Part shown: in pieces, positions 1 through 43,941 of the stretch | Numbering within the stretch: the stretch's first letter is position 1 | How the letters are laid out: every line of letters starts with the position of its first letter | NCBI GenBank assembly: GCA_012729455.1 | Contig: JAAYDC010000014.1 | Coordinates: 100,692-164,691 of the forward strand | Length of the DNA: 64,000 nucleotides | Reading direction: 5' to 3' | DNA from: Chloroflexota bacterium | GTDB lineage: Bacteria; Chloroflexota; Anaerolineae; UBA1429 | Translations under genes and position numbers: made by a program | Notes under the pieces: model-generated | Database searches by the model: none | What the model saw: the letters and a program-made list of their open reading frames with translations, nothing else | Told to the model about the DNA's origin: nothing

Positions 1-1038
1 CTTGGCATAATAGGTCTTGAGCACAGCTCCGAACATCTGCTGAGGTGACTTGCAGGTGGATAGATTATCCAGAAAGTCCGGATAATTCATCTCGCAGTAG
101 CGGATCCATCCCGGAGAGCAAGAGGTGATCATGGGAAGAGTTCCTCCCGTGTTCAACCTGTTCAACAACTCTGTGCCTTCCTCCATGATGGTCAGGTCCG
201 CACTAAAGTTGGTATCGAATACCTTGTCAAAGCCAATTCTTCTCAGGGCTGCCATCATCTTGCCGGTGACAGGGGTTCCCACGGGAAGTCCAAACTCCTC
301 GCCCAGAGATGCTCTCACTGCCGGAGCAGTCTGCACGACGACAAACTTGTCCGGATCCTGGATGGCTTCCCAAACCTGATCGATGTATGACTTTTCTCTG
401 AGGGCGGCAACAGGGCAGGCGTGTATGCACTGACCGCAGTAAATGCAATTCACATCTCTCATGCTGTAATCAAAGGCCGGCGCCACCTCTGTATTAAAGC
501 CTCTCTTGGTAAAGTCTAAAACGCCGATTCCCTGTACATCCCTACAGGTGCTAATACATCTGCCGCAGAGGATGCATTTTGAAGAGTCCCGGATAATGGA
601 ATACGAGAGATCGTCTATGACGGCCTTTCTCGTAGCACCTTTATAGGGAACATCATCAATTCCCAGCTCTCTGCAAAGCTTTTGCAGCTCACAAGTCCCG
701 CTTCTTTTACACGTGAGGCATTCACGGTTGTGATTAGCCAGAATCAACTCAACGTTTTGGCGCACCGCCTTCCGGACTCGGGCAGTATTGGTTCTTACAT
801 TCATGCCTTCTTGAACCTGTAGCACGCAAGATGCCGGCAGGTTCCTCATAGGAACACCGTTCACATCCGCTTCCACAACGCAGACCCTGCAAGCGGCGAT
901 TTCGTTAACGCCCTTTAAATAGCAAAGGGTGGGAATATCGACGCCCGCCTCCTTTGCCGCCAACTGTACAGTATAGTTCTTGGGGACGCTGACGGCAATC
1001 CCGTTAATTGTCACATTGACTTTTTGAACACTATCCAT
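1..1038 (-). CDS. hydA: [FeFe]-hydrogenase catalytic subunit (HydA/HndD-like); N-terminal ~345 aa only, 3' end runs off the window
   Basis: Reverse-complement translation from ATG at 1036-1038 gives MDSVQKVNVTINGIAVSVPKNYTVQLAAKEAGVDIPTLCYLKG...CRVCVVE. This is a 2Fe-2S ferredoxin N-domain, followed by CxxCxxC 4Fe-4S motifs and an H-cluster motif TSCSPGW. The frame stays open to position 1. AGGATGGG Shine-Dalgarno 6 nt upstream. Not in the ORF track because it has no stop inside the window. Confidence 0.85.
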   Translation of the reverse strand, partial: MDSVQKVNVTINGIAVSVPKNYTVQLAAKEAGVDIPTLCYLKGVNEIAACRVCVVEADVNGVPMRNLPASCVLQVQEGMNVRTNTARVRKAVRQNVELILANHNRECLTCKRSGTCELQKLCRELGIDDVPYKGATRKAVIDDLSYSIIRDSSKCILCGRCISTCRDVQGIGVLDFTKRGFNTEVAPAFDYSMRDVNCIYCGQCIHACPVAALREKSYIDQVWEAIQDPDKFVVVQTAPAVRASLGEEFGLPVGTPVTGKMMAALRRIGFDKVFDTNFSADLTIMEEGTELLNRLNTGGTLPMITSCSPGWIRYCEMNYPDFLDNLSTCKSPQQMFGAVLKTYYAK

Positions 1039-1051
1039 ATTATCCCATCCT

Positions 1052-2911
1052 TTATTTCTTAATGATGGCGTTGAATCTGCAAGTATCCATACAGACACCG
1101 CATTTGATGCACTTGTCCTGATCGATGTGGTGCTGTTCTTTGACCGTGCCGGTAATGGCCTTGGCGGGACATTTTCTGGCACACGCGGTACAGCCTGTGC
1201 AGGCATCCGTAATAAAGTAGCTCAACAGAGCCTTGCATTTGCCGGTCGGGCACCTCTTGTCGACTACGTGAGCCACATACTCGTCTCTAAAGTGCTTCAT
1301 TGTGGACAGGACAGGGTTTGGTGCCGTCTGCCCCAGAGCGCAGAGAGATGTGTTTTTAATATTCTCTGCCAGGTCTTCCAGAATAGTCAGATCTTCTATG
1401 GTACCATTGCCTTGTGTGATCTTGTCCAGGATTTCCAGCATTCTCTTTGTTCCTTCGCGGCAAGGAGTACACTTTCCGCAGGATTCATCCACTGTGAAAT
1501 CCAGGAAGAACCGTGCAATGTCTACCATGCAGTTGTCTTCGTCCATGACAATCATTCCGCCGGATCCCATCATAAAACCAATGGCAACCAAATTATCGAA
1601 ATCGATGGGAGCATCCAGGTATTTCTGGGGGAGGCATCCGCCGGAAGGGCCGCCGGTCTGAACCGCCTTGAATTGCTTTCCATTGAGGCAATCCTGACCA
1701 ATGTCATAAATAACTTCCCTGAGGGTGATTCCCATAGGAACTTCTACCAGGCCCGTGTTATTGATCTTGCCGCCAAGAGCAAATACTTTGGTGCCCGGTG
1801 ATTTTTCCGTACCCATGGATTTAAACCATTCGGGGCCATTGAGAATAATTTTGGGGATATTGGCTAGGGTCTCTACGTTGTTGATGATCGTCGGCTTGCC
1901 CCAAAGCCCCTTGTTTGCCGGGAATGGAGGCTTGTTCCTGGACATGCCGCGCTTCCCTTCAATGGAAGCGATCAATGCCGTTTCTTCTCCGCATACAAAG
2001 GCACCGGCACCCAGCCTGATTTCAATATCAAAGTCAAAGCCGCTGCCAAAGATATTCTTACCAATAAAGCCCATATCTTTAGCTTGCTTGATGGCAATCT
2101 TTAGTCTTTCGACAGCGACAGGATACTCGGCTCTCACATAAATAAAGCCCTTTGAAGCACCGATGGCATATCCGCCGATAGCCATTGCTTCTAGAACGGA
2201 GTGAGGGTCACCTTCCAGAACGCTTCTATCCATAAATGCGCCCGGATCTCCCTCGTCAGCATTGCAGATAAAGTACTTTTGGTCTGCTTCGTTGGCTGCA
2301 GCAAAACTCCACTTTAATCCTGTAGGGAATCCCGCACCGCCCCTTCCTCTGAGACCGGAAGCCTTCATAAGATTGATTACATCCTGGGGAGTCATTGTGG
2401 TGACTGATTTAGCCAGGGCCTGATATCCATTAACGGCAATGTAATCGTTGATATCTTCCGGGTTGATTAAACCGCAGTTTTGGAGGACGATTCGCTTTTG
2501 CTTTTTATAGAACTGCAAATCGTTGAGGCTCTTGAGCTTGCCGTTTTCATCTTCGCCGATGGTGTATTCCACCACAGGCTTACCTTTTACCAAGTGCTCA
2601 GAAACGACTCTAGAAACCCGGTCGGGATCCATGTGGATATAGGTAACCTTTTCCTCGTCATGTTCAAAGACCTCGACAATAGGTTCGTATATACACATGC
2701 CGATGCAGCCTGTGGGCATGACCTGAACATTGTCCAGCCCCGCCGCGGCTACTTGTTTCTTTAACGTATCTAAAACCAGCTTTGCTCCGGCAGAAATTCC
2801 GCAGGTGGCCATTCCCACGACGATGCGTCTGCCCTCAGTGGCTTCAAGATTCTTTACAGCATTGGCTTTCAGTTGGTTTAATTCATTGATACTGTTGTTC
2901 ATCTGCGCCAC
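1052..2911 (-). CDS. hydB: NADH-binding flavoprotein subunit of bifurcating [FeFe]-hydrogenase (NuoF-like, HydB/HndC). Has an N-terminal thioredoxin-like 2Fe-2S domain, an FMN/NADH core and C-terminal 2x[4Fe-4S] ferredoxin domains
   Basis: 619 aa. NuoF-like motifs GRGGAGFPTG and the 51-kDa subunit 4Fe-4S motif ESCGKCTPCREG. C-terminal CTGCTACARKCP and CIKCGVCMDTC ferredoxin motifs. Confidence 0.9.
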   Translation of the reverse strand: MAQMNNSINELNQLKANAVKNLEATEGRRIVVGMATCGISAGAKLVLDTLKKQVAAAGLDNVQVMPTGCIGMCIYEPIVEVFEHDEEKVTYIHMDPDRVSRVVSEHLVKGKPVVEYTIGEDENGKLKSLNDLQFYKKQKRIVLQNCGLINPEDINDYIAVNGYQALAKSVTTMTPQDVINLMKASGLRGRGGAGFPTGLKWSFAAANEADQKYFICNADEGDPGAFMDRSVLEGDPHSVLEAMAIGGYAIGASKGFIYVRAEYPVAVERLKIAIKQAKDMGFIGKNIFGSGFDFDIEIRLGAGAFVCGEETALIASIEGKRGMSRNKPPFPANKGLWGKPTIINNVETLANIPKIILNGPEWFKSMGTEKSPGTKVFALGGKINNTGLVEVPMGITLREVIYDIGQDCLNGKQFKAVQTGGPSGGCLPQKYLDAPIDFDNLVAIGFMMGSGGMIVMDEDNCMVDIARFFLDFTVDESCGKCTPCREGTKRMLEILDKITQGNGTIEDLTILEDLAENIKNTSLCALGQTAPNPVLSTMKHFRDEYVAHVVDKRCPTGKCKALLSYFITDACTGCTACARKCPAKAITGTVKEQHHIDQDKCIKCGVCMDTCRFNAIIKK

Positions 2912-2912
2912 C

Positions 2913-3458
2913 TCACTCTCTGTACTTATTAAGAATCGCTGAAATAACGCTTACGTCATCCAGTTTCCCGTATACGGTATCGTCGATCATGATGACCGGG
3001 GCCAGGCCGCAACACCCCAGACAACGGGTGGCATCGAGAGTGAACAAACCATCTTGGGTGGTTTCACCCACACCAACCCCCAATTCCTCGACGACCTTGT
3101 CCATAACTTTTTGAGCCCCTCTTACATAGCATGCCGTACCGAGACAAACTCCGACATGATGCTTGCCCCTCGGTTTAATGGCAAACTGGCTATAGAACGT
3201 CGCGATTCCATAGAGCTCTGCGATGGGGACGCCAATGTTCTCGGAAATAAACTTCTGAACCTCAAGAGGGAGGTATCCGAATATTCTCTGTGCCTCTTGA
3301 AGCACTGTCATAGTAATACCTTCGGAACCTTTGACAGAGTCGATATACGCTTTTAATTCCGCATATCTCTCGTCATTAGCTCTGTCACAGTTGCATCCGC
3401 AGTCATTTTGCATTTTACAAATCTCCTTTATTACTTGTGACAATGCTTGGTAAATCAA
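2913..3458 (-). CDS. hydC: NuoE-like [2Fe-2S] subunit of bifurcating hydrogenase (HydC/HndA)
   Basis: 181 aa. Thioredoxin-like 2Fe-2S motif region GVCLGTACYVRGAQ ... CLGCCGLAPV. Stop abuts the hydB start by 2 nt. Confidence 0.85.
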   Translation of the reverse strand: MIYQALSQVIKEICKMQNDCGCNCDRANDERYAELKAYIDSVKGSEGITMTVLQEAQRIFGYLPLEVQKFISENIGVPIAELYGIATFYSQFAIKPRGKHHVGVCLGTACYVRGAQKVMDKVVEELGVGVGETTQDGLFTLDATRCLGCCGLAPVIMIDDTVYGKLDDVSVISAILNKYRE

Positions 3459-3622
3459 TCATGATCTTGAACAACATTGCCTCCGATAATCCCTATCATA
3501 CAGCAAAAAACGGGCAGCCAATGATTGCCTGTGTAAAAATTGGCTTACCCGTACTCGTACGCTACATACACAGGGCTCGCACCCCTATGCAATAAAACAT
3601 GAAAACGCAAGTCTCCTGACTC

Positions 3623-3660
3623 AGGATAGGGAGGTAAAACTATCTCCTGAGAACCTATCC
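3623..3660. other. Perfect 8-bp inverted repeat hairpin (aggatagg ... cctatcct) in the AT-richer leader upstream of hydC
   Basis: Read directly: aggatagggaggtaaaactatctcctgagaacctatcct. An adjacent GNRA-type hairpin (agcc gaaa ggct) lies ~40 nt away. Probably part of a structured 5' UTR or a Rho-independent terminator of an upstream gene. Confidence 0.3.
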
Positions 3661-4129
3661 TACCTTTTTATAGGCGGCTTACTCCTCAATGGAAGCCTTT
3701 CGGCTCACATCAGGTCTCCCTGATGCTTTGGCAGATCCTCACGTCTACAGCGCCGGTTACGTTGGGTTTTGCCAACTGAATGGCACACCCACCCCATCTT
3801 CGCACCTGCCTGGCCTTTCAGCAAGTACGAAAGGACCATATAGTTTTTTACACGGATAAATGTCTCTATCCGGGATTCCTGAAAAGGTAGAACCACCACC
3901 CTCCGGGTCTCGATTCTACAAGTCTCCAGCCATTTGTCAAGACTGTCAACATGATTTTAGCGCCGGAACGCTGCCCTCTTTCTGGAGAGCAAATTGTCTA
4001 AAGCCGTCCGCACAAAAGGGATAGATGAGAGGACGCGGTGTACGTTGCGCAAAGGACTCGCCAGCCGCCATGCGCGCATCCGCGCATACTGTCAGCACGG
4101 CGCCGTTGCGCGCCTTGCTCTCGCAGCGC

Positions 4130-5482
4130 TCAGTTTCCGTTGGCGACGCTGTCGGCACCGAGGATCAGGATCAGGTCGACATCCGAGGTCTCGCCGGCAA
4201 AGGTGCGCACATTTTCGGGAAAGACCCCATATTCCTGCACCAGGAATTCGAGGGTATAGGGCTTGTCGTTATAGACCACGATGGTGGTCTGAGGCTGGTC
4301 AAAATCCGAGACCGTATCATAGCGGATCACATTAAAGCCCCTTTCGCGCAGTGCCAAAGTTTGAGCCTCGCCCAGGGCATCCACTCCGCTGCCATTACGC
4401 AGCTCGATGCGGGCAGCCTCGGCAGCGATCTGGCTGCGCGTCGGGTCGGGGGTACTATCCAGAGGGGTCGAGTTGGGGAACAACTCCGTCACTAAAGCGT
4501 ACACCTTGTCCCAATCGGCCTGCTGCACCATTGCACCAGTCTGTGTGGTCACAGATCTGGTCATGGTTTCGTCGATCTGGGCGGTCCGCAGGTTGTCTTT
4601 GCTCAAGCTGCGTGCCATCTCGGCCAGTGCGATCATCTCACGCAGGTTCAGGTCGGTGACGATCGAATCGCCCGCCAGCTTGACCAGCCCCGGGATAGAC
4701 GAGAGCGGGATATTGAGCGAGAGCACCTTATCGCGGATCGCCATGATTACCTGCTGCTGACGCTCCATGCGGTTAAAATCGTTTGAATCATGCCGCGTAC
4801 GAGCATACTCGAGGGCACGTTTGCCATCCAGCTGCTGAATGCCCGGCTGGAACTCGACCGTATAGGTGCCATAGTTGTTATCAGGGTAGGCACTATCGTA
4901 AATATGGCGCGGCACATCGATCGTAATGCCGCCAATAGCATCCACCATCTTCTCAAAGCCGGTAAAGTTGATGCGCATGAAATAGTGCACTGGCACACCC
5001 AGGGCTTCCTGCACCGTCAGTTTGGCCAAAGCCGGCCCGCCGCCGGGGTAGTGGTAGAAATCGCCCAGGGAATGCGCGGCGTTGATGCGATTTTCGCCAT
5101 ACCCCGGTATCTTGACCCACAAATCGCGCGGGATCGACAAAAGCGACGCCTTGTTGGTGGAGGGGTCAATGGAAAAAAGCATCATCGTGTCCGAGCGCCA
5201 GGGACCTGCTTCGCCCTCACGCTGGTCGATGCCCAGCAGCAGTACATTGACGGGTTCTTTTTTGGCGACCACATCGGGCAGCTCGTGCGCGGGGGCGCGC
5301 CCTGGGATCGCGTTCGGGTCGTTGAGGATCGGGATAAGCGGCAGCGAGGTGTTCGCAACCACCGCCTTGACGGTCGAGAAGAACAGATAACCGCTATAGA
5401 TCGCGCCGGATAGCAAGACCACCATCATAAACGAAACCAGCGCTCGGCGCGCACTGTGCGCGAAACTGGATCTTGCTCCCAT
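4130..5482 (-). CDS. LytR-CpsA-Psr (LCP) family cell-envelope glycopolymer transferase with an N-terminal TM anchor and C-terminal LytR_C-like domain
   Basis: 450 aa. TM helix FMMVVLLSGAIYSGYLFF. LCP-core-like LLLGIDQRE...RSDTMMLFSIDP...SIPRDLWV...YARTRH. Confidence 0.85.
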   Translation of the reverse strand: MGARSSFAHSARRALVSFMMVVLLSGAIYSGYLFFSTVKAVVANTSLPLIPILNDPNAIPGRAPAHELPDVVAKKEPVNVLLLGIDQREGEAGPWRSDTMMLFSIDPSTNKASLLSIPRDLWVKIPGYGENRINAAHSLGDFYHYPGGGPALAKLTVQEALGVPVHYFMRINFTGFEKMVDAIGGITIDVPRHIYDSAYPDNNYGTYTVEFQPGIQQLDGKRALEYARTRHDSNDFNRMERQQQVIMAIRDKVLSLNIPLSSIPGLVKLAGDSIVTDLNLREMIALAEMARSLSKDNLRTAQIDETMTRSVTTQTGAMVQQADWDKVYALVTELFPNSTPLDSTPDPTRSQIAAEAARIELRNGSGVDALGEAQTLALRERGFNVIRYDTVSDFDQPQTTIVVYNDKPYTLEFLVQEYGVFPENVRTFAGETSDVDLILILGADSVANGN

Positions 5483-5615
5483 CTCTGCCCTTTATCATCC
5501 GTCTTTATCGACTAGTATAGCACACTGCCCGGCGCCTACCAACATTAGCAGTGATTGCAGAACCAGTCGCTATATTTTATACTGAAAATCTATCTGATTT
5601 GTTCCAAGGAACGCC

Positions 5616-7277
5616 GTGTTGCCTCAGGGATTGCTGCTGGCTGGCCGCTACCTGGTGATTGAGTGGGCTGGCCGTGACGGCCTAACCGAAGTCTACCGCG
5701 CCTGGGATTCGCTCCTGGGCACACCGGTGCGCCTTGAAGCACTGCCAGCGGCCCCCCAGGGGATTGCCCCCGCGCGTTGGGCGCAGCAACTAGCCTCCAT
5801 GCGCACCGAAGCCGAATTGGGCGCCCAGCTGCAGCATCGCGGGCTGGTGGAGGTTACGGGGCTCGTCCGTAGTGCCTCTGGTGATTATGTGCTAGTACGC
5901 AAAGACTATGCCGGCGCCAGCCTGGCCGACGAACTGCATTCAGGGCGTACCCTGCCGGCTATGCAGACGACCTCAGTCTTTCGCCAGGTCTGCAGCACAC
6001 TGCGGGCGATCTCAGCCACCGGCATGCTGAACGGCCGCCTGGAAGCCGGCAGCATCTGGCTGAGCGGTGAGCGTGTCCGCCTGACCAGCCTGGGCGCCAG
6101 CCTGCGGCCTGCCCCCGTACGGTCCGCCTCAGAACCATGGCCGGCGGGGCTCAACAGCGACCCAGCAGCCGAGGCCAGCCTCGTGCAGCAGATCGGCCGC
6201 CTGATGGTCGCCACGCTGACTGGCAATCCCTGCCACGGGCAACCTCTGGCGCTGCGGCCGCGCGCACTCAATAGCATCATCGAATGCGCCCTCGGGCAGC
6301 ACGGAAGGGCCTATCGCGGCTTGGCAGAGCTCGAGCATGACCTGTATGCGATGGAGAATGAGTCGCCGCGTGCCGAAGTCGCCATGCTGTGGCAGCGTGC
6401 CCCGGTTGCCGCGCGGATTGGGATCAGCGTCCTGCTGATCGTGCTCCTGCTGGGGGCTGGGCTGGTCCTCAGCCAAGGCTGGAACAGGCTGCACGCCTTG
6501 GATGCCGCGCCAGTGTCGGCCACCCCCACATATACTCTGGCCTGGCCGGTTGTGCACACCGACGCGCACGGCGATAAGGACACAGGAAGCTTGCCAGTTC
6601 GTGATGCACGCGACACCTATGAGCCCGACGAGGGACATGCGGCGCTGCTTCAGCCCGGCGTGCAGCAGGCGCATACCTTTTACCCGCAAGGGGATACCGA
6701 CTGGGTGATGTTCCCGGTCCAGCGCGGCTGGACCTATATGCTGCAGGCGATTAACCAGGGTGACGCGCAGATCCAGCTGGACGTGAACGATGGGGCGCAA
6801 AACTGGCAGGGAATCTCGCCCGCGGCGGGCCAAAACGCGCTGGTTACGCTGATACCCTCTCAGGATAGCACCGCCCTGGTAAAGGTCAGCGCTCTGGGCA
6901 CCTTTGGCGAGGGCAGTGCCTTTGTGCTTTACTTGACGGAATTTCCGCCCGATAGCGCGCCACCCGCCCCTGAGCCCACCCGTGAGATCGTTGCCCAGCC
7001 GACGCGCACCCCGCGCCCGGTGATGACTCCGCTGCCCACAGCACCGCGTGCCACTGCAGCGCCAGGGGTCACAAGCGCGCCGGCAACCACCCGTACAGCG
7101 CAGATCAGCGCAACCCCGAAGCCCTCGCTCACGCCTACCCGCACGCGCACACCGCGCCTGACGCGCAGTGCCACCCTCAGCCGCACGCCCACCATTACGC
7201 CAACCCCGACGCCCTCGCTCACGCCTACCTCTACCGATACGCCCGTGCCCAGCACGCGCGAATCGGTGGTGCCCTGA
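5616..7277 (+). CDS. Membrane pseudokinase. Has a degenerate Hanks-type Ser/Thr kinase-like N-domain, one TM helix, an extracytoplasmic domain and a Pro/Thr-rich tail
   Basis: GTG start. Kinase-like order: GRYLVIEWAGRDGLTEVYRA (degenerate Gly loop), VRLEAL where VAIK is expected (no catalytic Lys), no HRD Asp, SLG where DFG is expected. TM helix IGISVLLIVLLLGAGLVL. Tail TPTPTPSLTPTSTDTPVPSTR. Confidence 0.6.
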   Translation: MLPQGLLLAGRYLVIEWAGRDGLTEVYRAWDSLLGTPVRLEALPAAPQGIAPARWAQQLASMRTEAELGAQLQHRGLVEVTGLVRSASGDYVLVRKDYAGASLADELHSGRTLPAMQTTSVFRQVCSTLRAISATGMLNGRLEAGSIWLSGERVRLTSLGASLRPAPVRSASEPWPAGLNSDPAAEASLVQQIGRLMVATLTGNPCHGQPLALRPRALNSIIECALGQHGRAYRGLAELEHDLYAMENESPRAEVAMLWQRAPVAARIGISVLLIVLLLGAGLVLSQGWNRLHALDAAPVSATPTYTLAWPVVHTDAHGDKDTGSLPVRDARDTYEPDEGHAALLQPGVQQAHTFYPQGDTDWVMFPVQRGWTYMLQAINQGDAQIQLDVNDGAQNWQGISPAAGQNALVTLIPSQDSTALVKVSALGTFGEGSAFVLYLTEFPPDSAPPAPEPTREIVAQPTRTPRPVMTPLPTAPRATAAPGVTSAPATTRTAQISATPKPSLTPTRTRTPRLTRSATLSRTPTITPTPTPSLTPTSTDTPVPSTRESVVP

Positions 7278-7278
7278 A

Positions 7279-7488
7279 TCAGGATTCGTCAGGCGGCAGT
7301 ACCTGCAGTTGGGTAACCTTTAGTTCAGCCTTATCGAGCTCAGCCTCGCAATACTGTGAAATCCGAATGCCTTCTTCGTAGAGTGCCAGCATCTCTTCCA
7401 GAGGGTGCTGACTGCTATCCAGGGCTTGAACAATACTTTCCAGCCGGCGGTAACCCGCCTCAAAGCTCTCAATCTGCTTCTTTTTCAT
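7279..7488 (-). CDS. xseB: Exodeoxyribonuclease VII small subunit
   Basis: 69 aa MKKKQIESFEAGYRRLESIVQALDSSQHPLEEMLALYEEGIRISQYCEAELDKAELKVTQLQVLPPDES. Stop of xseA is 1 nt upstream. The rest of the 239-aa track ORF is antisense junk. Confidence 0.8.
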   Translation of the reverse strand: MKKKQIESFEAGYRRLESIVQALDSSQHPLEEMLALYEEGIRISQYCEAELDKAELKVTQLQVLPPDES

Positions 7489-7489
7489 A

Positions 7490-8698
7490 TCAGGGCTCCT
7501 TAGGCTCTGTGCGGGTAACACTCGCTTGGGCGGTGCCATCAGCCAGGCGTAAGGTGATAGCCTCCGGCGGGACCAGCTGGCTGATGCTGGTAACCAGCGC
7601 CTGCGATTCGCCTTTGTAGACCAGTGCATAGCCGCGCTCGAGGACGTGCTGTACATCCAGAGAACGCAGCTGCTGGATGCTGACCTGCAGGCGCTGGCGT
7701 TGGAGCGCCAGGTAGTTGGCCATGGAGGCCTCGGCGCGTTGGCGCAACATATCGACTTGCTGGCGCTGTTCCTGCATCCGCCGCAGCGGATTGTGCACCG
7801 CCAGGGCACGCTGCTCGCGCCTGACGAGCTCGCGCCAGCCAGCCAGGTTGCGGGTGACCATCTCGTCCAGCATGCCGCGTAATTGCTCCAGACGCCCGCT
7901 GATTTGTACCAGGTCAGGTACGGCTGCCACAGCCGCTGCGGTGGGCGTGGGGGCGCGATAGTCAGCTGCATAGTCGATGATCGTGAAATCGGTATCATGC
8001 CCGACTCCCGAAATAACCGGCGTGGGCGAGTTGGCTACAGCACGCACCACGGCTTCGTCGTTAAAAGCCCACAGGTCCTGCGGCGACCCGCCGCCACGTG
8101 CCACGATGATCACATCGCACAGGCCTGTGGCGTTCAGGGCGTTTAGTGCCGCCACGATAGCGGCTGGCGCCTCATCACCCTGCACGGCGCTGTGCGCCAG
8201 GATCACCTCGACCAGCGGGTTGCGCTGCCGCAGCACATTGAGGATATCCTGCCAGGCTGCTCCCGATTCAGAGGTTACCACCCCGATGCGCCGCGGCCAG
8301 GCGGGCAGGGCGCGCTTGCGTTCCTCGGCAAAGAGCCCTTCAGCCTCGAGGCGCTCTTTGATCGCCATGAACTGCGCCCACAACCTCCCCAGACCGCCGT
8401 GCAGTAACTGATCAACGCGCAGCTGATAGTAGCCCCCGCCGAGATAGACGGTGATGCTGCCGTGGGCTTCGGCCAGGTCGCCGGGTTGCGGCGCCCAGGT
8501 CAGACGCGCCGCCTGCTGGCGCCAGATCACGCAGCGCAGCGATGAAGCCTGGTCTTTGAGGGTAAAGTAGATGTGTCCCGCGCTGGCACGCTTAAAATCG
8601 CTGATTTCTCCGGCGACCCACAGGTCCTCAAAGACACCTGAGCCCTCAAGCGCCTCTTTGATATAGCCGTTCAGCTGCTCGACAGTGAACATTTTCAT
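7490..8698 (-). CDS. xseA: Exodeoxyribonuclease VII large subunit
   Basis: OB-fold N-terminus (IYFTLKD, RCVIWR), then the catalytic domain (GVVTSESGAA, IIVARGGGS, ISGVGHDTDFT). Start chosen at MKMFTVEQL; the track ORF extends 19 codons further. Confidence 0.85.
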   Translation of the reverse strand: MKMFTVEQLNGYIKEALEGSGVFEDLWVAGEISDFKRASAGHIYFTLKDQASSLRCVIWRQQAARLTWAPQPGDLAEAHGSITVYLGGGYYQLRVDQLLHGGLGRLWAQFMAIKERLEAEGLFAEERKRALPAWPRRIGVVTSESGAAWQDILNVLRQRNPLVEVILAHSAVQGDEAPAAIVAALNALNATGLCDVIIVARGGGSPQDLWAFNDEAVVRAVANSPTPVISGVGHDTDFTIIDYAADYRAPTPTAAAVAAVPDLVQISGRLEQLRGMLDEMVTRNLAGWRELVRREQRALAVHNPLRRMQEQRQQVDMLRQRAEASMANYLALQRQRLQVSIQQLRSLDVQHVLERGYALVYKGESQALVTSISQLVPPEAITLRLADGTAQASVTRTEPKEP

Positions 8699-8769
8699 GG
8701 CACTATTATAGCACAGCCGCACCTGGCCCAACATAGTTGACACCTCCTCGGGCACGTGTTAAGATGAGC

Positions 8770-8789
8770 TTGTACGTACAACTGTACAG
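8770..8789. promoter_or_regulatory. Candidate GntR-family operator. A perfect 12-bp palindrome ttgtacgtacaa is immediately followed by the 8-bp palindrome ctgtacag, 9 nt upstream of the GntR start codon
   Basis: Read directly in the xseA/gntR divergent intergenic region. GT-N-AC palindromes are the known operator type for GntR/HutC regulators. Its position overlaps the RBS and leader, which suggests autoregulation of the downstream operon. Confidence 0.45.
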
Positions 8790-8797
8790 GTTGGCTG

Positions 8798-9550
8798 ATG
8801 ACCTTTCTCAGTGCTTTATCCGCCATCGATAAATCCAGCGCAGTGCCCTATTACTACCAGCTGGCCGAGATCCTGCGACGGCAACTGGATAGCCGCGCTT
8901 CACGCGGCGAGGTACTGCAGTTGCCTTCTGAAAACGAACTGTCCGAGCATTTTGTCCTCTCGCGCGCCACGGTGCGCCACGCGCTGGATATCCTCGAGAC
9001 CGAGGGCTGGATCTATCGCCAAAAGGGCAAGGGCGCCTTTGCGCCTTTCCGGCGCGTGCAGCATGAGCTCACACAGCTGGTCTCGACCACCGAAGACATG
9101 CAGCGGCGCGGCTGGCCGCTCGAGACGCGGCTGTTGAGTTGCGAGCTGCTGCCCTCTCCTGCCTATGCTGCCGATGCGCTCGAGATTGGCCAAGAGACGG
9201 CCATCTACCGCTTGGAGCGCCTGCGGCTGGTGGATGGCGAGCCGCTCAGCCTGCAGATTTCGCACCTGCCGGCCAGCTTGTGCCCGGGACTCGAACAGCA
9301 TGCCGAAGCCGGCTCGCTCTACCGCCTGTTGGAAGAGCGCTATGCACTAAAGCTGTGGAATGCCCAAGAAGTGCTGCGCGCACGCCCGGTTTCTCCGTAT
9401 GAGGCTGATCTGCTCGACGTGCGCGAAGGAGCTTGCACGCTCTATATAGAACGGGTAACGTATAACACAGAAGGAATCCCGGTCGAGTACCTGGAGTCTG
9501 TCTGGCGCGGCGACCGTTACGACTTTACCGTACATCTCACCCGCAGTTGA
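8798..9550 (+). CDS. GntR/HutC-family transcriptional regulator (winged HTH plus UTRA effector domain)
   Basis: 250 aa. HTH LPSENELSEHFVLSRATVRHALDILETEGWIYRQKGKGAF. C-terminal UTRA-like domain. Confidence 0.85.
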   Translation: MTFLSALSAIDKSSAVPYYYQLAEILRRQLDSRASRGEVLQLPSENELSEHFVLSRATVRHALDILETEGWIYRQKGKGAFAPFRRVQHELTQLVSTTEDMQRRGWPLETRLLSCELLPSPAYAADALEIGQETAIYRLERLRLVDGEPLSLQISHLPASLCPGLEQHAEAGSLYRLLEERYALKLWNAQEVLRARPVSPYEADLLDVREGACTLYIERVTYNTEGIPVEYLESVWRGDRYDFTVHLTRS

Positions 9551-9568
9551 GCGCCTGAAGGAGGAAAC

Positions 9569-10546
9569 ATGAAGTTTTCGGCCAACATCAACACCTTTAA
9601 TGCCTGTGCCGACCGCTATGTGCTGAGCGGATACGGCGAACGCCTCGATTCAGACGCGCTGATCCGAGCCGCTACCCAGGTGCCCGATCTGACGGGCGTA
9701 GAGCTGGTGGGCATGTGGCACGTCAATGACAACAATGTCGAGCAACTGCGCCGCCAACTGGCCGATGTTAACCTGGCGGTTACCTGCATCACACCCGATA
9801 TCTGGGCTTCCAGCAAGTGGGGCTGGGGGTCATTTACGTCGCCTGACCCAGCCATCCGCGCGGATGCCATCCGTGAGGTGCAAAAATCGATGGGCTGGGC
9901 CAAGCAGATGAACTGCGATATCGTCGATCTGTGGTTTGGGCAGGATGGCTACGACTATCCCATGCAGGGCGACTACCAGACCGCATGGGATCGGATCATC
10001 GAGGGCACCATCGCCTGCGCCGAATATATGCCGGATATCAATCTGGTGATCGAGTACAAGCCCAAGGAACCGCGCACGCACTGTTATATCTCCACGGTCG
10101 GCAAGACGCTCTTGCTGATCGACAAGGTCAACAAGCCCAACGTGGGCGCCATGATCGACGTCGGCCACACTCTCCAAGCCTACGAGGATGCCGCCGAATC
10201 GGCCGCGCTGCTGGATTACTTTGGTAAAAAGCTGATGTACATGCACTTTAACGATAACTGGCGCCTGTGGGATGACGACATGACCGCCGGTTCGGTGCAC
10301 ACCATCGAGCTGCTGGAACTGCTCTACTGGCTCGACCACATCGGTTATGACGGCTGGTATGCGCTCGACATCTTCCCTTACCGCGAGGATGGCATCCGCG
10401 CCGCCACTGAGAGCATCAAGTGGATCCAGGGCCTCTACGGGCTGCTCGACAAGATCGGGCGCGATAATATCACCTCTGCTATTGAGCAGGGTGATGCTAT
10501 GCAGGTATCCAGCCTGGTAAGAACCGCTTTACTGGGCAATTCATAA
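9569..10546 (+). CDS. Xylose-isomerase-like TIM-barrel sugar (phosphate) isomerase/epimerase
   Basis: 325 aa. GAAGGAGG RBS. TIM-barrel sugar isomerase signatures (EYKPKEP, DVGH, HFNDN). Confidence 0.8.
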   Translation: MKFSANINTFNACADRYVLSGYGERLDSDALIRAATQVPDLTGVELVGMWHVNDNNVEQLRRQLADVNLAVTCITPDIWASSKWGWGSFTSPDPAIRADAIREVQKSMGWAKQMNCDIVDLWFGQDGYDYPMQGDYQTAWDRIIEGTIACAEYMPDINLVIEYKPKEPRTHCYISTVGKTLLLIDKVNKPNVGAMIDVGHTLQAYEDAAESAALLDYFGKKLMYMHFNDNWRLWDDDMTAGSVHTIELLELLYWLDHIGYDGWYALDIFPYREDGIRAATESIKWIQGLYGLLDKIGRDNITSAIEQGDAMQVSSLVRTALLGNS

Positions 10547-10557
10547 ACGCTGGAGGA

Positions 10558-11913
10558 ATGATGACCAAGCAACTGTACGACCCGCATATGTTTAACTATA
10601 TGTGGGAAAGCCTCGACCGCGACCGTTTTGTAGTAGGCACCTACTATATCGAAGATACCCTGGAAGGGGTCGATTTTATCGACCACCTTATGCAGGTGCA
10701 GCGCCTGGCGCTAGAGGGCTCGACTGCCAGCTGGATGGAAGTAAAGGAAGAGACCCCTGAAGTGCGTGAACGCCTCTCGAGCAAGGTTCTGAACTATTTA
10801 GAGATCCCCGCGTCCAAGGGCACAAAAAAAGCCATTGTGCAGCTGGCCTTTCCCATCGCTGCCTGGGAAGAGAACGTCAACGTGCCGATGATGCTGCTCT
10901 CGATCATGGGCAACATCCCGGCATTTACCAACAAGATGCGTATGCTCGATCTGTATGTGCCGCCGACGGTAGCCGCTAAACTGGGCGGACCCAAGTTCGG
11001 CATCCCCGATCTGCGCGAAAAGCTGGGCGTCTACGACCGCCCGCTCATACTGCAGATCATCAAACCCAAGATGGGCATGTCGCCCCAGGAGACGGCCGAC
11101 CAGGTCTACCAGACCGCTCTGGGCGGGGCTGACCTGTGCAAAGACGACGAGATGTGCTCCGAGCTCTCCAACTCGCGTTTTGAAGACCGCCTCGAGGCCG
11201 TGTTAAAGGCACTCGACAAGGCCGAAAAAGAGACCGGTCACAAGACCCTCTACATGGTGAGCATCACCGACGAGGCCGACCGAGTGGTCGAAAAGGCACG
11301 CCGTGCGGTAAAGCTGGGCGCCACAGGCCTCCTGTATGCCTACTCGGCAGGGCTTTCGTCGCTTAAGACGATCGCCAACGACCCCGAGATCAATGTGCCG
11401 ATCCTGCTGCACGTCTCGCACATGATGGCGCTCTTGCCCTCGATGAACTTTCCGGTGCTTTCAAAGCTGTGCCGTATGTGCGGCGCCGACATGATGCTCA
11501 CGCCTTCGATCTGGTCGAGCATCCCGGTGGCCTCGGCCGAAGAGTGCGGCCGTGTGGCGCAGACCCTGCAGGCACCCTTTTATAATCTAAAGCCCACCTG
11601 GCCGATGCCCGCCGCGGGCATGTATCCCGGCCTGATCGACGTGCTGATCCAGGAAAACGGCTTAGACTTTATCGTTCCGGCGGGTGGTGGTATGCTGGGG
11701 CATCCGATGGGCTACAAGGCCGGGGCCATGGCCTGGCGCCAGGCAATCGACGCCGTCACCAAGGATGGCATCAGCCTGCAGGAAGCCGCTCGCAAATACA
11801 AGGAATTTGGCGCCGCCGCCGAGCTATGGGGCATTCGCACCCGCCCGGTGACGCCGTGGGGGTATTCCGGGCCGGATTACCACCCCAAGTTCGCGCCCAA
11901 GAACCTGGGTTGA
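10558..11913 (+). CDS. RuBisCO large-subunit-like protein (RLP, form IV-like)
   Basis: 451 aa. IKPKMGMS matches the IKPKLG motif (K175/K177 equivalents). GGADLCKDDE matches GGLDFTKDDE (carbamylated-Lys/Asp/Glu metal site). PAGGGMLGHPMG matches the GG phosphate-binding loop. No small-subunit gene nearby. Confidence 0.8.
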   Translation: MMTKQLYDPHMFNYMWESLDRDRFVVGTYYIEDTLEGVDFIDHLMQVQRLALEGSTASWMEVKEETPEVRERLSSKVLNYLEIPASKGTKKAIVQLAFPIAAWEENVNVPMMLLSIMGNIPAFTNKMRMLDLYVPPTVAAKLGGPKFGIPDLREKLGVYDRPLILQIIKPKMGMSPQETADQVYQTALGGADLCKDDEMCSELSNSRFEDRLEAVLKALDKAEKETGHKTLYMVSITDEADRVVEKARRAVKLGATGLLYAYSAGLSSLKTIANDPEINVPILLHVSHMMALLPSMNFPVLSKLCRMCGADMMLTPSIWSSIPVASAEECGRVAQTLQAPFYNLKPTWPMPAAGMYPGLIDVLIQENGLDFIVPAGGGMLGHPMGYKAGAMAWRQAIDAVTKDGISLQEAARKYKEFGAAAELWGIRTRPVTPWGYSGPDYHPKFAPKNLG

Positions 11914-11979
11914 TCGCGTTTTATAACTGGTGCGCCCGCCGTATTGGGGCGCACCAGCATGTTCGTTAAGGGAGCGTGT

Positions 11980-12948
11980 ATGTCAGAGTTTTCATTGCTG
12001 GATATGTACCGCAAAATGCTGCTGATCCGCCGCTTTGAGGAGCGCTGCAACGAGCTGTATATGCAGGGGCGCATCCCATCGACGCTGCACCTCTACATCG
12101 GCCAGGAGGCTGTGGCAGTGGGCGCCTGTGCGCCATTGACGGATGCCGACTATCTTTTTAGTACCCATCGTCCGCACGGCCACGCCCTGGCCAAGGGCGT
12201 CAGCCCACGCTCGATCATGGCAGAGCTCTTTGCCAAGGTCACAGGCTGCTGCAAGGGCAAGGGCGGCTCGATGCACGTCGGTGATATGCGCGTCGGCATG
12301 TTCCCGGCTGTGGCGATCGTGGGAGCCAACATCCCGCTGGCGGCTGGCGCTGCCCTGGCGGCCAAGCGCCTGAACGACGGACGCGTGACAGCCTGCTTTT
12401 TCGGCGACGGAGCCGCCAACGAAGGCGCCTTCCATGAAGGCTTGAATATGGCGGCGATCTGGAAGCTGCCTGTAGTATATTTCTGCGAAAACAACCTCTA
12501 CGCCGCTTCCACGCCTTTCAGCACGGCGTTCAACATCAAGCAGGTGGCCGACCGCGCTGCCAGCTATGGCATCCCCGGGATCGTGGTGGATGGCTATGAC
12601 GTCGAGAGTGTGGCTGAGGTAGCTGAGGAAGCCTACAATCGCGCGCGCCGCGGCGACGGCCCCACTCTGGTGGAATGCATGACCTACCGCCTGTGCGGGC
12701 ATTCGCGCAGCGACCCGCGCACCTACCGCACCAAGGAAGAAGAGGCCGAGTGGCAAGCGCGTGACGTGATCCCAACTACCGCCTCGCGGCTGCTTGATCG
12801 CGGCCTGGCTACGCAGGAGCGCATCGACCAGTTCGAAGCGGAAGTCAAAGCCGAGATCGACGACGCGGTGCAGTTTGCCGAAGAGAGTCCTTATCCCGAA
12901 CCGCACGAACTGATGGAAGATATCTTTGCGCCGGAGGCTGCCCTATGA
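11980..12948 (+). CDS. TPP-dependent 2-oxoacid/acetoin dehydrogenase E1 alpha subunit
   Basis: TPP motif GDGAANEG...NN. High similarity to the PdhA/AcoA family. Start chosen at MSEF after the AAGGGAG RBS. Confidence 0.85.
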   Translation: MSEFSLLDMYRKMLLIRRFEERCNELYMQGRIPSTLHLYIGQEAVAVGACAPLTDADYLFSTHRPHGHALAKGVSPRSIMAELFAKVTGCCKGKGGSMHVGDMRVGMFPAVAIVGANIPLAAGAALAAKRLNDGRVTACFFGDGAANEGAFHEGLNMAAIWKLPVVYFCENNLYAASTPFSTAFNIKQVADRAASYGIPGIVVDGYDVESVAEVAEEAYNRARRGDGPTLVECMTYRLCGHSRSDPRTYRTKEEEAEWQARDVIPTTASRLLDRGLATQERIDQFEAEVKAEIDDAVQFAEESPYPEPHELMEDIFAPEAAL

Positions 12949-13958
12949 GCCAGATGAGTATTGCCCAAGCCCTGCGCCAGGCGATCCGCGAAGAGATGCT
13001 GCGCGACGAGCGCGTCTATTGCATCGGTGAGGATATCGGCGTCCCGGGCGGTTTTGGCGGCGCATTTACCGTCACGCTCGGGCTTTCGGACGAGTTCGGC
13101 CGCGAGCGCATCCTGGATACCCCCATTTCCGAGATCGGCCTGGCGGGCGTGGCGATCGGTTCGGCTTGTGCCGGCATGCGCCCGATCGCTGACGTGCAGT
13201 ATGGCGACTTTTTGTTCTGTATGATGGACCAGCTGGCCAACCAGGCGGCCAAGATGCGCTACATGTCGGGCGGCACGATCAAGGTACCGATGGTGATGCG
13301 CGCACCGGTGGGCTCGACAAGCCGCGGCGCTCAGCACGCCCAGAGCCTAGAGGCGTTTTTCACGCACATCCCTGGGTTAAAGGTCGTGGCGCCCGCCACC
13401 GCCTACGACGCCAAGGGACTGCTCAAGGCTGCCGTGCGCGATGATAACCCCGTGATCGTCTTTGAGCACAAGCTGCTGTATGGCAGCAAGGGTCCGCGTT
13501 CCGAGCGCGGCGCGCTCAGCCCGATCGGCGAGGTGCCGGATGACGACTATATCGTGCCGATTGGCAAGGGCATCATCCGCCGCAAGGGCAAAGATGTCAC
13601 CATCGTCGGCAAGCTGTTGACGCTTTACCGCGCCCTGGGAGCCGCCGATGAGCTTGCCAAAGAAGGCATCGAGGCCGAGGTGATCGACCCGCGCACCCTT
13701 GTTCCGCTGGATAAAGACCTGATCCTCGAATCGGTGCGCAAGACCGGCCGGCTGGTGATCGTCGAGGAAGATAACCTCACCGGCGGATGGGCCGGCGATA
13801 TTGCCGCCATCGTGGCCGAAGAGGCTTTCTACTGGCTGGACACGCCCATCAAACGCCTCTCGGCACCAGATGCGCCCGCGCCCTTTGCGCCAGTGCTCGA
13901 ACAGCTGTATGTTCCCAGCGTCGCAAACGTCGTGCAGGCCGTCAAGAGCCTCTTTTAG
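12945..13958 (+). CDS. 2-oxoacid/acetoin dehydrogenase E1 beta subunit (transketolase-like)
   Basis: 337 aa. PdhB/AcoB-like throughout. ATGA overlap with E1 alpha. Confidence 0.9.
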   Translation: MSQMSIAQALRQAIREEMLRDERVYCIGEDIGVPGGFGGAFTVTLGLSDEFGRERILDTPISEIGLAGVAIGSACAGMRPIADVQYGDFLFCMMDQLANQAAKMRYMSGGTIKVPMVMRAPVGSTSRGAQHAQSLEAFFTHIPGLKVVAPATAYDAKGLLKAAVRDDNPVIVFEHKLLYGSKGPRSERGALSPIGEVPDDDYIVPIGKGIIRRKGKDVTIVGKLLTLYRALGAADELAKEGIEAEVIDPRTLVPLDKDLILESVRKTGRLVIVEEDNLTGGWAGDIAAIVAEEAFYWLDTPIKRLSAPDAPAPFAPVLEQLYVPSVANVVQAVKSLF

Positions 13959-13969
13959 GGAGTGGTGAA

Positions 13970-15019
13970 ATGCCCAAGCAAGTGTTGGTGCCACCCCTCG
14001 GGACGACTGTCGATACCATCACGCTGGTCGAGTGGCTCAAACAGCCCGGCGAAGCCGTAACGCACGGCGAGCCGTTATTTGTGATCGAGACCGACAAGGC
14101 TAACCTGGATGTCGAGGCGCCCGCCACGGGCATTCTCACCCAGGTGAGCGCACAACCCGGTGACGAGTTGACCGCCCTGACGGTGATCGCGCTGATCGCC
14201 GAAGAGGGCGAGGCGCCGAAGACTCCTGCTCCTGCTACGGCATCCGCGCCCGCAGCCGAACCCGCGGAGGTTCAAGCCCCCGTTGCCAAGCCCGAACCGG
14301 CTGCCGCGGTATCTTCCAGTGCCCCAATCTGCCGTGAAAGGGTGTTCATTTCGCCGCGCGCCAGACGCCTGGCTGAGGCGCATAATGTGCCGATCGCAGG
14401 GCTGGTGGCAACCGGACCCGAGGGCGCCATCATCGAGCGGGATGTGCGCGCCTGGCTGGAGGCACATCCTGCGAGCATGCCGGCTGCGCCCGCTCAGACC
14501 GCTGTGTCAGCGCGTTATACGCTGCAGGCTGAGTTCGACCCGGCCGAATTGCTGGATTGGCAAGACGCCTTGCGTACCTCCAAGCGTCAACCCAGTATCC
14601 TGCAGGTGGTGTTGCTGACCGCCCTGAGAATGCTGGCGGCCGAACCGCTTAACGCGCCGGATGGCAGCGAACTGGGCCTGGCTATGGCTGAACTGAGCGA
14701 CACAGGCCTGCGCTACCGGCCGCTGCCGCTCGCGAGCGCCCTGAATATGGCAAGGCTGCAAAAAGTTTTAGAGACCGAGCCTCAGGAGGCATTTTCGCAG
14801 GGGATCGCCCTGCTGGATGCCGGCGCACTGGGGCTGGATGTGCTGACGCCGAGCGATGCGAGCGTGCCCATGATCAGCATCGGCCGCGTGCGGCGTGGGC
14901 GCCCCGCCTGGCTGAGCGTGAGTGCTGATCCGAGCGCGTTGAGTGCACTGCAGGCAGCCAGCTGGTTGGCACGGCTTGTCAACCTGCTGGATGATCCGCA
15001 GCAGGTATTAGCAATCTAA
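13970..15019 (+). CDS. E2-like lipoyl protein. Has a lipoyl domain, a peripheral-subunit-binding domain and a degenerate acyltransferase domain lacking the catalytic His
   Basis: Lipoyl motif IETDKANLDVEAP. PSBD RARRLAEAHNVPIAGLVATGPEGAIIERDV. Where E2 enzymes have ...SxDHRxxDGA the sequence reads LSVSADPSALSALQAAS, so His, Arg and Asp-Gly are lost. Start at ATG 13970 after the AGGGAGTGG RBS; the track ORF start at 13787 overlaps E1 beta and is rejected. Confidence 0.7.
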   Translation: MPKQVLVPPLGTTVDTITLVEWLKQPGEAVTHGEPLFVIETDKANLDVEAPATGILTQVSAQPGDELTALTVIALIAEEGEAPKTPAPATASAPAAEPAEVQAPVAKPEPAAAVSSSAPICRERVFISPRARRLAEAHNVPIAGLVATGPEGAIIERDVRAWLEAHPASMPAAPAQTAVSARYTLQAEFDPAELLDWQDALRTSKRQPSILQVVLLTALRMLAAEPLNAPDGSELGLAMAELSDTGLRYRPLPLASALNMARLQKVLETEPQEAFSQGIALLDAGALGLDVLTPSDASVPMISIGRVRRGRPAWLSVSADPSALSALQAASWLARLVNLLDDPQQVLAI

Positions 15020-15034
15020 CAAGGAGAAGGAATC

Positions 15035-16522: not shown

Positions 16523-17155
16523 CACCTGCAGGAGGCTACCTAGCAGTTAATCTGCGCAATTACGTGTTTCCGGATCATCTGCAGCCAAAGCATTCGGCCT
16601 TTTTAGGCTCTGTGGCACGCTGCTTTATGCCGCTGCCCGGTGGTGATGCCCCGCTGTGAACCGAGATTTTACCGGGGATCGAGATCACACGCATCACCGA
16701 TATAGCGCTGAAATCGACGTGTGTGCAGCCTAAAGAAATTCAGCAGCTTTAAAAATCGGACGCATGATCGGTACTTTGGTCGCCGTCATACAGGTGACCG
16801 TCTGGAGGGTATGCACTTTAGCGGTGCAAGAGCTCACCCGTACAACTGCCACGGCTGGGCTCCCAACGTGTGGCGGAGCGAGTGTGACGTACAACGGCGT
16901 GTAACCGGAACCGTGGTTGGCACGATGTATCATCCAAGCTTTGATGACCGCAAACTGCTTGTAGCGGCCAGGTGCAGCTTGCAGGGCGCGCTCCGGGGCT
17001 GATCATGCCATCGCCGTCGACCCGGTACAGCCCAGCGTGGGCGATGTGGTGCTGGGGCTCGATGAGAACGGCAGTGCCTGCACACTCACGGATATCGAAC
17101 CCGGCGGGGCGGTGCGCCCCGTTATAATTGGAATTGCGGACGAGGTGCAACTGAC

Positions 17156-17899: not shown

Positions 17900-17994
17900 C
17901 AGCCGGCTGAGCCCGAAACATTCGATGAGCAAGCCCCAGTGACCGCCATCACCGAGCAGATGATGTAACAGTCAAGTGGCGATAGGAGGATAAC

Positions 17995-32948: not shown

Positions 32949-32997
32949 CCTGTTCTCCTCCGTAAGAAACGTTCTGGATACCATCAGCGGATGCGGG

Positions 32998-43939: not shown

Positions 43940-43941
43940 TA

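Follow-up and report, generated by a model that had tools for sequence, protein, structure and literature searches.

The 64,000-nucleotide stretch of DNA analysed here (positions 100,692 to 164,691 of contig JAAYDC010000014.1, from assembly GCA_012729455.1 of a Chloroflexota bacterium; hereafter the window) opens with hydC-hydB-hydA, an operon for an [FeFe]-hydrogenase of the HydABC type, and passes within about 4 kb into a chromosome of quite different composition. The probable explanation is that an Anaerolineae lineage recently gained a HydABC operon of Bacillota type by horizontal transfer, and that the newcomer displaced, in situ, an NAD(P)-linked [NiFe]-hydrogenase locus that had been resident there. 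Positions 1 to ~3998 would then be the right-hand end of the acquired module, which would have landed ~100-130 bp after the gene for an LCP (LytR-CpsA-Psr) protein. In six sister lineages exactly this position is taken by a DRTGG/CBS-kinase/PHP set of regulatory genes together with a NuoE-NuoF::GltD-NuoG-[NiFe] cluster.

The composition break in the sequence is real and far beyond chance. GC content is 0.489 at positions 1-3494 and 0.486 at 3495-3998, against 0.604 from 4000 to 64000, and elsewhere in the window no 2-kb interval falls below 0.55 (range 0.55-0.68); low GC is thus confined to the first ~4 kb. GC at third codon positions (GC3) is 0.52 in hydC, 0.55 in hydB and 0.58 in hydA, compared with 0.728 ± 0.043 in 47 host genes (z = -3.4 to -4.9), and the GC-normalised dinucleotide signature of the hyd region lies at a distance of 105 from the host, where 3.5-kb pieces of the host itself lie at 47 ± 16 (maximum 85). 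Codon choice differs in the same comparison: arginine is encoded by AGA in 53% of cases in the hyd genes and 3% in the host (CGC, 10% vs 59%), and the hyd genes also favour ATT for isoleucine (43% vs 15%) and GGA for glycine (28% vs 8%). An initial annotation of this DNA had proposed a break in GC and codon usage between the hyd operon and the chromosome, which these measurements bear out, but it drew the two sides somewhat differently. It held AAA, GAA and ATA to be frequent in the operon, and this is so for GAA (60% vs 38%) but not for AAA (34% vs 36%) or ATA (6% vs 6%). It described the chromosome as uniformly high in GC with saturated third positions, where GC3 is in fact ~0.73 and GC varies over the range given above. 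It also placed the switch inside a spacer of intermediate composition at 3459-3950. Segmentation (maximum-likelihood / Jensen-Shannon divergence) puts the change point at 4030 at every segment length tried, ~100-130 bp past the LCP stop codon; the composition of the spacer is therefore that of the low-GC side, with a GC equal to that of the hyd genes.

The three hydrogenase genes are contiguous, all on the minus strand, with gaps of 10-13 nt between them (Table 1). Their assignment to a HydABC-type bifurcating hydrogenase, made at the outset, is upheld by their Pfam domains, by matches to solved structures from Acetobacterium woodii and by the score of a full-length HydA orthologue. HydC (NLV74139.1) has A. 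woodii HydC as its best PDB match (E 1e-50); its gene starts at an ATG at 3413 behind the ribosome-binding site AAAGGAG, rather than at 3458, where the first reading had set the coding limit (~3460). HydB (100% identical to NLV74138.1) is a NuoF-like subunit for flavin mononucleotide and NADH with a C-terminal pair of [4Fe-4S] clusters and a ferredoxin-like N-terminus, which resembles a 2Fe-2S ferredoxin-like protein of a sister locus described below (L104); residues 28-615 align with residues 10-598 of A. woodii HydB (7Q4V_B, E 6e-253). Within the window, HydA comprises its N-terminal [2Fe-2S] and [4Fe-4S] domains and the beginning of the H-cluster domain, including the first motif, TSCSPGW. 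As only 346 of ~594 residues are in view, it covers positions 1-338 of the 571 in NCBIfam model NF040763 ('NADH-dependent [FeFe] hydrogenase, group A6') and its 526 bits fall short of the cut-off of 765. In full length, the orthologue from a related lineage (594 residues; lineage A below, locus L002, 11866-13650), 89.6% identical to the window HydA over the shared part, reaches 901.5 bits, and its best PDB match is A. woodii HydA1 (E 4e-216). TSCSPGW departs from the textbook first H-cluster motif TSCCPxW and was considered as a possible anomaly or defect; this was rejected, as the same TSCSPGW is present in the orthologue and in the structurally solved A. woodii HydA1, and it seems to be a feature of the clade. 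For the three subunits, the HydABC enzymes of Thermoanaerobacter kivui and Thermotoga maritima rank after A. woodii among solved homologues. The genes are intact and appear to be under purifying selection, since the ratio of nonsynonymous to synonymous differences (pN/pS) relative to lineage A is 0.10. From homology, the module is predicted to encode an A. woodii-type NADH- and ferredoxin-dependent (electron-bifurcating or confurcating) [FeFe]-hydrogenase. No HydE, HydF or HydG maturase is found among the annotated genes of the window.

The same module occurs in other genomes, and in unrelated surroundings. HydB is 90-92% identical to proteins of two lineages: lineage A ('Anaerolineaceae bacterium', including a 2.3-Mb contig; 92%; reference locus L002) and lineage B (reference locus L087). 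The next relatives, at 82-88%, are proteins of Clostridiales, Family XIII, Anaerovoracaceae and Bacillota metagenome-assembled genomes (MAGs). A neighbour-joining tree of HydB has the form (P0002,(window,(A,B))) and lies within Bacillota-labelled sequences; among the matches listed in a HydB scan of genome contigs, relatives are at most 73% identical and all of Bacillota type. Lineages A and B have in common a block of ~6.97 kb (89% nucleotide identity) that has sharp ends and unrelated flanks and consists of ~100 bp of upstream sequence, hydCBA and a NitT/TauT ATP-binding cassette (ABC) transporter in the opposite orientation. The window is 86-88% identical to this block from its left edge to 3494. 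The module has a GC of 47-48% in both lineages, and the flanks are at 41% in A and ~54% in B (0.52 overall; 0.53-0.56 in coding sequence); AGA makes up 58% of arginine codons in the hyd genes and 27% in the flank of A, and 57% and 4% in B. Because each of these two contexts is reproduced in many independent assemblies (NCBI, ENA, JGI, Logan), a compositional discordance of the kind seen in the window is real elsewhere, and the hyd module is demonstrably mobile between genomes. Its source would be a Bacillota (Anaerovoracaceae-like) gene pool, and it probably circulates among digester Chloroflexi. Searches of plasmids (blastn and distant mode) and of viral contigs turned up no carrier element, and the 90% clusters of the lineage A and B transporter proteins contain no accession of the NLV series to which the window proteins belong. 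At the module ends in lineages A and B the only flanking repeat is an imperfect one of ~36 nt outside the module in B.

That direct repeat (TCCATTC..CCCCTTTTCATCAA..CGTCTT) stands at L087 9172-9207 and 16409-16444, outside the hyd-ABC module by ~200 bp on the left and ~60 bp on the right. The right-hand copy precedes a gene for an extracytoplasmic function (ECF) sigma factor by ~50 nt, and pairs resembling ECF sigma and anti-sigma factors occur on both sides of the module. The repeat may be an ECF promoter motif or the trace of an insertion site.

On the other side of the junction, gene order and best matches identify the host flank as Anaerolineae. Close homologues of the LCP protein (72-79% identical) are all from Chloroflexi/Anaerolineae MAGs, and a scan of metagenome contigs with LCP yields only relatives at 31-39%. 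Comparing taxonomic best matches across the junction, as the initial annotation had proposed, leads from HydB to the Bacillota/Anaerovoracaceae set and from LCP to Chloroflexi/Anaerolineae. HydB, HydC, LCP and the next open reading frame (ORF; NLV74141.1, GXY52_05610) share a single contig of 260,889 bp in an NCBI MAG named 'Chloroflexi bacterium' (locus tags GXY52_). The host block that follows has the same gene order in the sister loci L102 and L105 and in an independent contig of the flank (L001), with 71-75% nucleotide identity to L102 and L105.

What lies beyond LCP in close relatives can be read directly in three sister loci whose LCP proteins are 73-79% identical: L102 (GCA_054606755.1), L104 (GCA_021372475.1) and L105 (from Logan). 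All three keep the order of the window (FGGY, E2, E1beta, E1alpha, RuBisCO-like, TIM-barrel, GntR, xseA, xseB, a protein X, LCP). Past LCP a cluster with host-like GC begins 63-127 bp after the stop codon on the same strand and runs DRTGG, CBS-HATPase, DRTGG, PHP, a NuoE/HoxE-like protein, HATPase, a 2Fe-2S ferredoxin and a NuoF::GltD fusion of 1015 residues. In L104 (5949-11488) the fusion is followed by a NuoG/HoxU-like protein and by the small and large subunits of a [NiFe]-hydrogenase. ('Hox' is used loosely, as the NCBIfam scores of the sister proteins are below the equivalog cut-offs.) In L102 (15532-19652) a formate/nitrite transporter and then the contig end come after the fusion; the resident cluster varies among sister species. 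The window contains no remnant of the DRTGG, CBS, PHP or [NiFe] genes, only paralogous matches to hydCBA. Six sister LCP lineages pair one-to-one with six NuoF::GltD lineages and none is left over for the lineage of the window: no such fusion is recorded under an NLV accession or on the 260,889-bp contig, and the best 120 homologues are all assigned to sister lineages. The window lineage therefore appears to be without the resident cluster, and this apparent loss is what points to displacement in situ by the foreign hydrogenase.

Measured against the age at which the module lineages diverged, the acquisition would be recent: donor-like GC3 and AGA-rich arginine codons are retained, with a weak drift towards the host. 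Window and lineage A differ by a pS of 0.38, yet the GC3 of the window hyd genes (0.556) is only ~0.03 above the inferred ancestral value (0.527), so the direct donor would be an unsampled lineage and residence in the host short. In an unrooted test of polarised synonymous changes, the window branch has 85 AT>GC against 52 GC>AT changes (third positions 89 vs 59, p = 0.002), where the corresponding counts are 35/36 on branch A and 37/55 on branch B.

Several points weigh against acquisition with displacement. Amino-acid changes lack a GC-ward bias (24 vs 32), and with no root, changes on the stem of A and B would be mis-polarised; for these two reasons the AT>GC excess is counted as weak support. 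The left end of the module lies beyond position 1, so host DNA is visible on one side. No integrase or transposase occurs among the annotated genes of the window, and repeats at the junction are short and at chance level only. No tRNA was found in the whole 64 kb, nor any rRNA, tRNA or insertion sequence at the junction. The initial annotation had already reported a boundary devoid of integrase, tRNA and direct repeats, and the tRNA scan, gene annotation and repeat search agree. Such signatures of mobility are common in islands, although they are not obligatory. The assembly records also count against it. ENA contig NODE_1827 of ERZ778040 (L001; 28,373 bp, ~8x coverage) is 100% identical to the window from 15482 down to 3999 and stops there; such an end, no more than ~30 bp from the change point, can hardly be a coincidence. 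It neither crosses the junction nor shows another continuation, and is the sole independent contig of the flank that was found. The exact HydB and HydC, and anything more than 92% identical to them, are recorded in one NCBI MAG only; proteins of the flank are present in ENA, JGI and GEM assemblies too (at least four other sources). Public digester data assembled with MEGAHIT are the probable origin of the MAG (an attribution inferred from the accession series; method in PMC7038595), and any pooling of samples into groups ahead of the assembly would raise the risk of a misjoin.

These records fit a chimeric assembly, in which an Anaerolineae chromosome was misjoined at ~3999-4030 to the hyd locus of a lower-GC digester organism and the junction exists in no cell. 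The composition, codons and dinucleotides of 1-3998, which depart from those of the host and resemble the module as it occurs in other genomes, would fit this as well. The initial annotation had offered an island and a chimeric join as its two options, and with the flank contig ending at 3999 its caution about chimerism was legitimate. Neither the [NiFe] cluster of the sister species, nor the occurrence of the module in other Chloroflexi-labelled genomes, nor the promoter, leader and terminator within the non-coding stretch figured in it. The evidence nevertheless favours the island, and we regard a misjoin as unlikely. Contigs also end at the edge of an island where strains are polymorphic, or where the island is shared with a donor in the community. 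By chance alone, a misjoin would need to have met a NuoE/F-type hydrogenase operon at its promoter, correctly oriented, and just where all six sister lineages keep a NuoE/F-type cluster of their own. The 'true' continuation that it implies, a NuoF::GltD of the window lineage, is absent in NCBI, ENA, JGI and Logan, even though contigs of the flank in those data reach 26-28 kb. Around 3999, comparison with 105 collected loci and the window revealed no common sequence from which a misjoin could have been seeded, a limited test given that the donor genome is unsampled. In lineage B a discordance of this kind is real and replicated in independent assemblies, and the excess of synonymous AT>GC changes along the window branch also speaks, weakly, for residence in the host. 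Finally, the partial HydA of 346 residues has no exact counterpart among database proteins, though HydB, HydC and LCP of the same MAG do; hydA as deposited must therefore extend past the piece in the window, the contig goes on beyond that piece, and the hyd segment is not merely a contig tip.

If NODE_1827 is collinear with the window throughout (3999-15482 was checked), its far end would fall at ~32371, inside the gene for a Liv-type substrate-binding protein (31767-33035). This gene is in the second-lowest-GC stretch of the window (30-34 kb, GC 0.55-0.56), which carries branched-chain amino-acid ABC transporter genes.

A simple insertion between LCP and the resident NuoE/F-[NiFe] cluster, with the cluster persisting further left, is much harder to sustain. 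It draws on the fact that the module's left end is out of view, and on the position of the junction, which is where the first gene of the sister cluster starts (63-127 bp after LCP); the missing NuoF::GltD homologue, sought on the 260,889-bp contig and under NLV accessions, and the assignment of the best 120 homologues to sister lineages make it very improbable. Least credible of all is that the hyd genes are native and vertically inherited and owe their odd composition to selection (expression level, or codon choice in an Fe-S operon): a GC3 of ~0.5 and AGA-rich arginine in all three host backgrounds could be read as a gene-intrinsic constraint, but six sister lineages have the other cluster and no hydCBA at this locus, HydB remains 90-92% identical across genomes whose flanks differ by 19 GC points (41, ~54 and 60%) and nests in Bacillota, the module edges are sharp, the non-coding leader is equally low in GC, and expression bias is excluded as the cause because infC, GAPDH and rplT, highly expressed host genes in the window, have GC3 values of 0.68-0.72.

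Under the reading preferred here, acquisition with displacement in situ, the operon would also have a regulatory region of its own. Transcription may start from a sigma-70-like promoter and run through a structured leader of ~490 nt to a terminator-like hairpin shortly before hydC (Table 1), and the combination of promoter, structured leader and hairpin suggests control by attenuation. In lineage B an unrelated hairpin with a U-run occupies the equivalent relative position upstream of hydC. Rfam returned no RNA family for the leader, either at the gathering threshold or at E<=5, and tblastx and short-word blastn found no homologue of 3495-4129 in the 105 collected loci or the rest of the window. 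Leader length was examined as a possible pattern and nothing clear emerged (the median upstream gap across 67 Bacillota hyd loci is 203 nt). Judging from this single sequence and its predicted fold, the leader (~400-490 nt) may be of the attenuator type, or possibly a separate RNA of ~400 nt. A bolder proposal, which we hold to be doubtful, is that a promoter-equipped cassette of ~7 kb (hydCBA with or without the NitT/TauT transporter) moves between unrelated digester Chloroflexi without a recognisable mobility gene, that it precisely replaced a regulated [NiFe] locus, and that the leader is a new cis-acting attenuator or riboregulator giving control independent of the host.

Table 1. Features of the hyd region and the adjoining host flank (positions in the window).
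Feature	Positions	Strand	Basis
hydA, 5' part, 346 codons; gene continues past window edge	1..1038	-	Pfam Fer2_4, NADH-G_4Fe-4S_3, Fer4_7, Fe_hyd_lg_C
hydB, 616 amino acids	1052..2902	-	Pfam Complex1_51K, NADH_4Fe-4S, Fer4 x2 (residues 567-616)
hydC, 166 amino acids, NuoE-like [2Fe-2S] subunit	2913..3413	-	Pfam 2Fe-2S_thioredx
hydC-proximal 81 nt, last stretch shared with lineages A and B	3414..3494	-	blastn homology to L002 and L087 stops at 3494
Orphan leader, GC 0.49	3495..3905	-	Minimum free energy -175.8 kcal/mol, z = -4.27 vs 100 shuffles
Terminator-like hairpin (~13 bp stem) with U6, candidate attenuator	3504..3552	-	Fold of 3485-3570; ~95 nt upstream of hydC ATG
Near-consensus sigma-70-type promoter, TTGACA-16-TAGAAT (11/12), directed towards hydC	3913..3940	-	Consensus scan
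Junction zone	3999..4030		End of ENA contig NODE_1827 at 3999 and GC change point at 4030
LCP (LytR-CpsA-Psr) gene, last host gene before junction, same strand as hyd	4130..5482	-	Pfam; NLV74140.1
Host block syntenic with sister species: 553-residue ORF, xseB/xseA, GntR, TIM-barrel, RuBisCO-like, E1alpha/E1beta/E2, FGGY kinase	5616..16522		Pfam

Some features of the host part deserve a brief record. Positions 8798-18759 hold a catabolic cluster around a RuBisCO-like protein (RLP) that is conserved in L102, L105 and L001; the neighbours of the RLP are a GntR/UTRA regulator, a xylose-isomerase-like TIM barrel, the E1alpha, E1beta and E2 components of a 2-oxoacid dehydrogenase, an FGGY kinase, a class II aldolase and an SDR protein. 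The RLP scores below every NCBIfam equivalog cut-off (the best is 2,3-diketo-5-methylthiopentyl-1-phosphate (DK-MTP-1-P) enolase, and it is also OiaX-like), and the cluster looks like an uncharacterised sugar or sugar-acid pathway. Its E2 component (13787-15019) has only lipoyl and E3-binding Pfam domains in the window, L105 and L001, and the L102 orthologue also matches 2-oxoacid_dh; the catalytic domain may be divergent or truncated. Three long ORFs, at 5616-7277, 18756-20777 and 40799-44143 (553, 673 and 1114 residues), have no Pfam or NCBIfam match, and the slot of the first is taken in L102 by a protein of 587 residues with a protein-kinase domain. At 52698-55261 a RACo-type reductive activator of corrinoid proteins adjoins a class I methyltransferase near GAPDH, a hint that this Anaerolineae genome may encode methyl transfer dependent on corrinoids.

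Anaerolineae are abundant and mostly uncultured in anaerobic digesters, where they act as fermenters or syntrophic partners, and the way in which they dispose of reducing equivalents as H2 determines their interaction with methanogens. If the junction is real, a pyridine-nucleotide-linked [NiFe]-hydrogenase would have been swapped for a Firmicutes-type confurcating [FeFe] enzyme at one chromosomal slot, and the spread of the same cassette in digester Chloroflexi would be an example of the exchange of hydrogen-metabolism modules at the level of the community. A caution follows for genome reconstructions from metagenomes: those that assign HydABC to Chloroflexi rest on junctions of this kind, which short-read assemblies tend to break or may mis-join.

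The comparison with known systems can be drawn first at the level of the enzyme. As far as the window shows them, the domain sets of hydCBA equal those of HydABC(D) from A. woodii (7Q4V/7Q4W/8A5E), T. kivui (8A6T) and T. maritima (7P5H). The module differs from the A. woodii system in that no hydD is seen in the window and that the host belongs to the Chloroflexota instead of the Bacillota; its activity is a prediction. It also has much in common with the locus that it would have replaced. The sister loci carry clusters of the Hox type, or group 3 NAD(P)-linked [NiFe]-hydrogenases, whose NuoE, NuoF and NuoG-like proteins are paralogous to HydC (48% identity), HydB (56%) and the N-terminus of HydA (38%), and both systems link H2 to pyridine nucleotides. 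They part ways in the catalytic portion, which is a [NiFe] small and large subunit in the sister cluster and an H-cluster domain in hydCBA, and in the NuoF::GltD fusion and DRTGG/CBS-HATPase/PHP genes that the sister clusters have and the window does not.

As an event, the case resembles classical genomic islands in its anomalous GC, codon and dinucleotide signature, its sporadic distribution among close relatives and its sharp boundary. Unlike them, it has a boundary without tRNA, integrase, transposase or direct repeat, it was not found on plasmids or viral contigs, and one boundary is visible. Mosaic operons and loci that arise through xenologous displacement in situ were reportedly described by Omelchenko and colleagues in Genome Biology in 2003, and here too analogous foreign genes occupy the slot used in relatives and flanking synteny is kept on the visible side. 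The difference lies in the scale and kind of the replacement: a multi-gene cluster of ~10 kb with its regulators would have given way to a three-gene operon for another hydrogenase class with its own promoter, with the second flank still out of sight. No earlier account of this case turned up in a search of the literature. The type of event is known, both as island and as xenologous displacement, and the interesting parts are the replacement of the locus, the cassette found in three genomes and the orphan leader.

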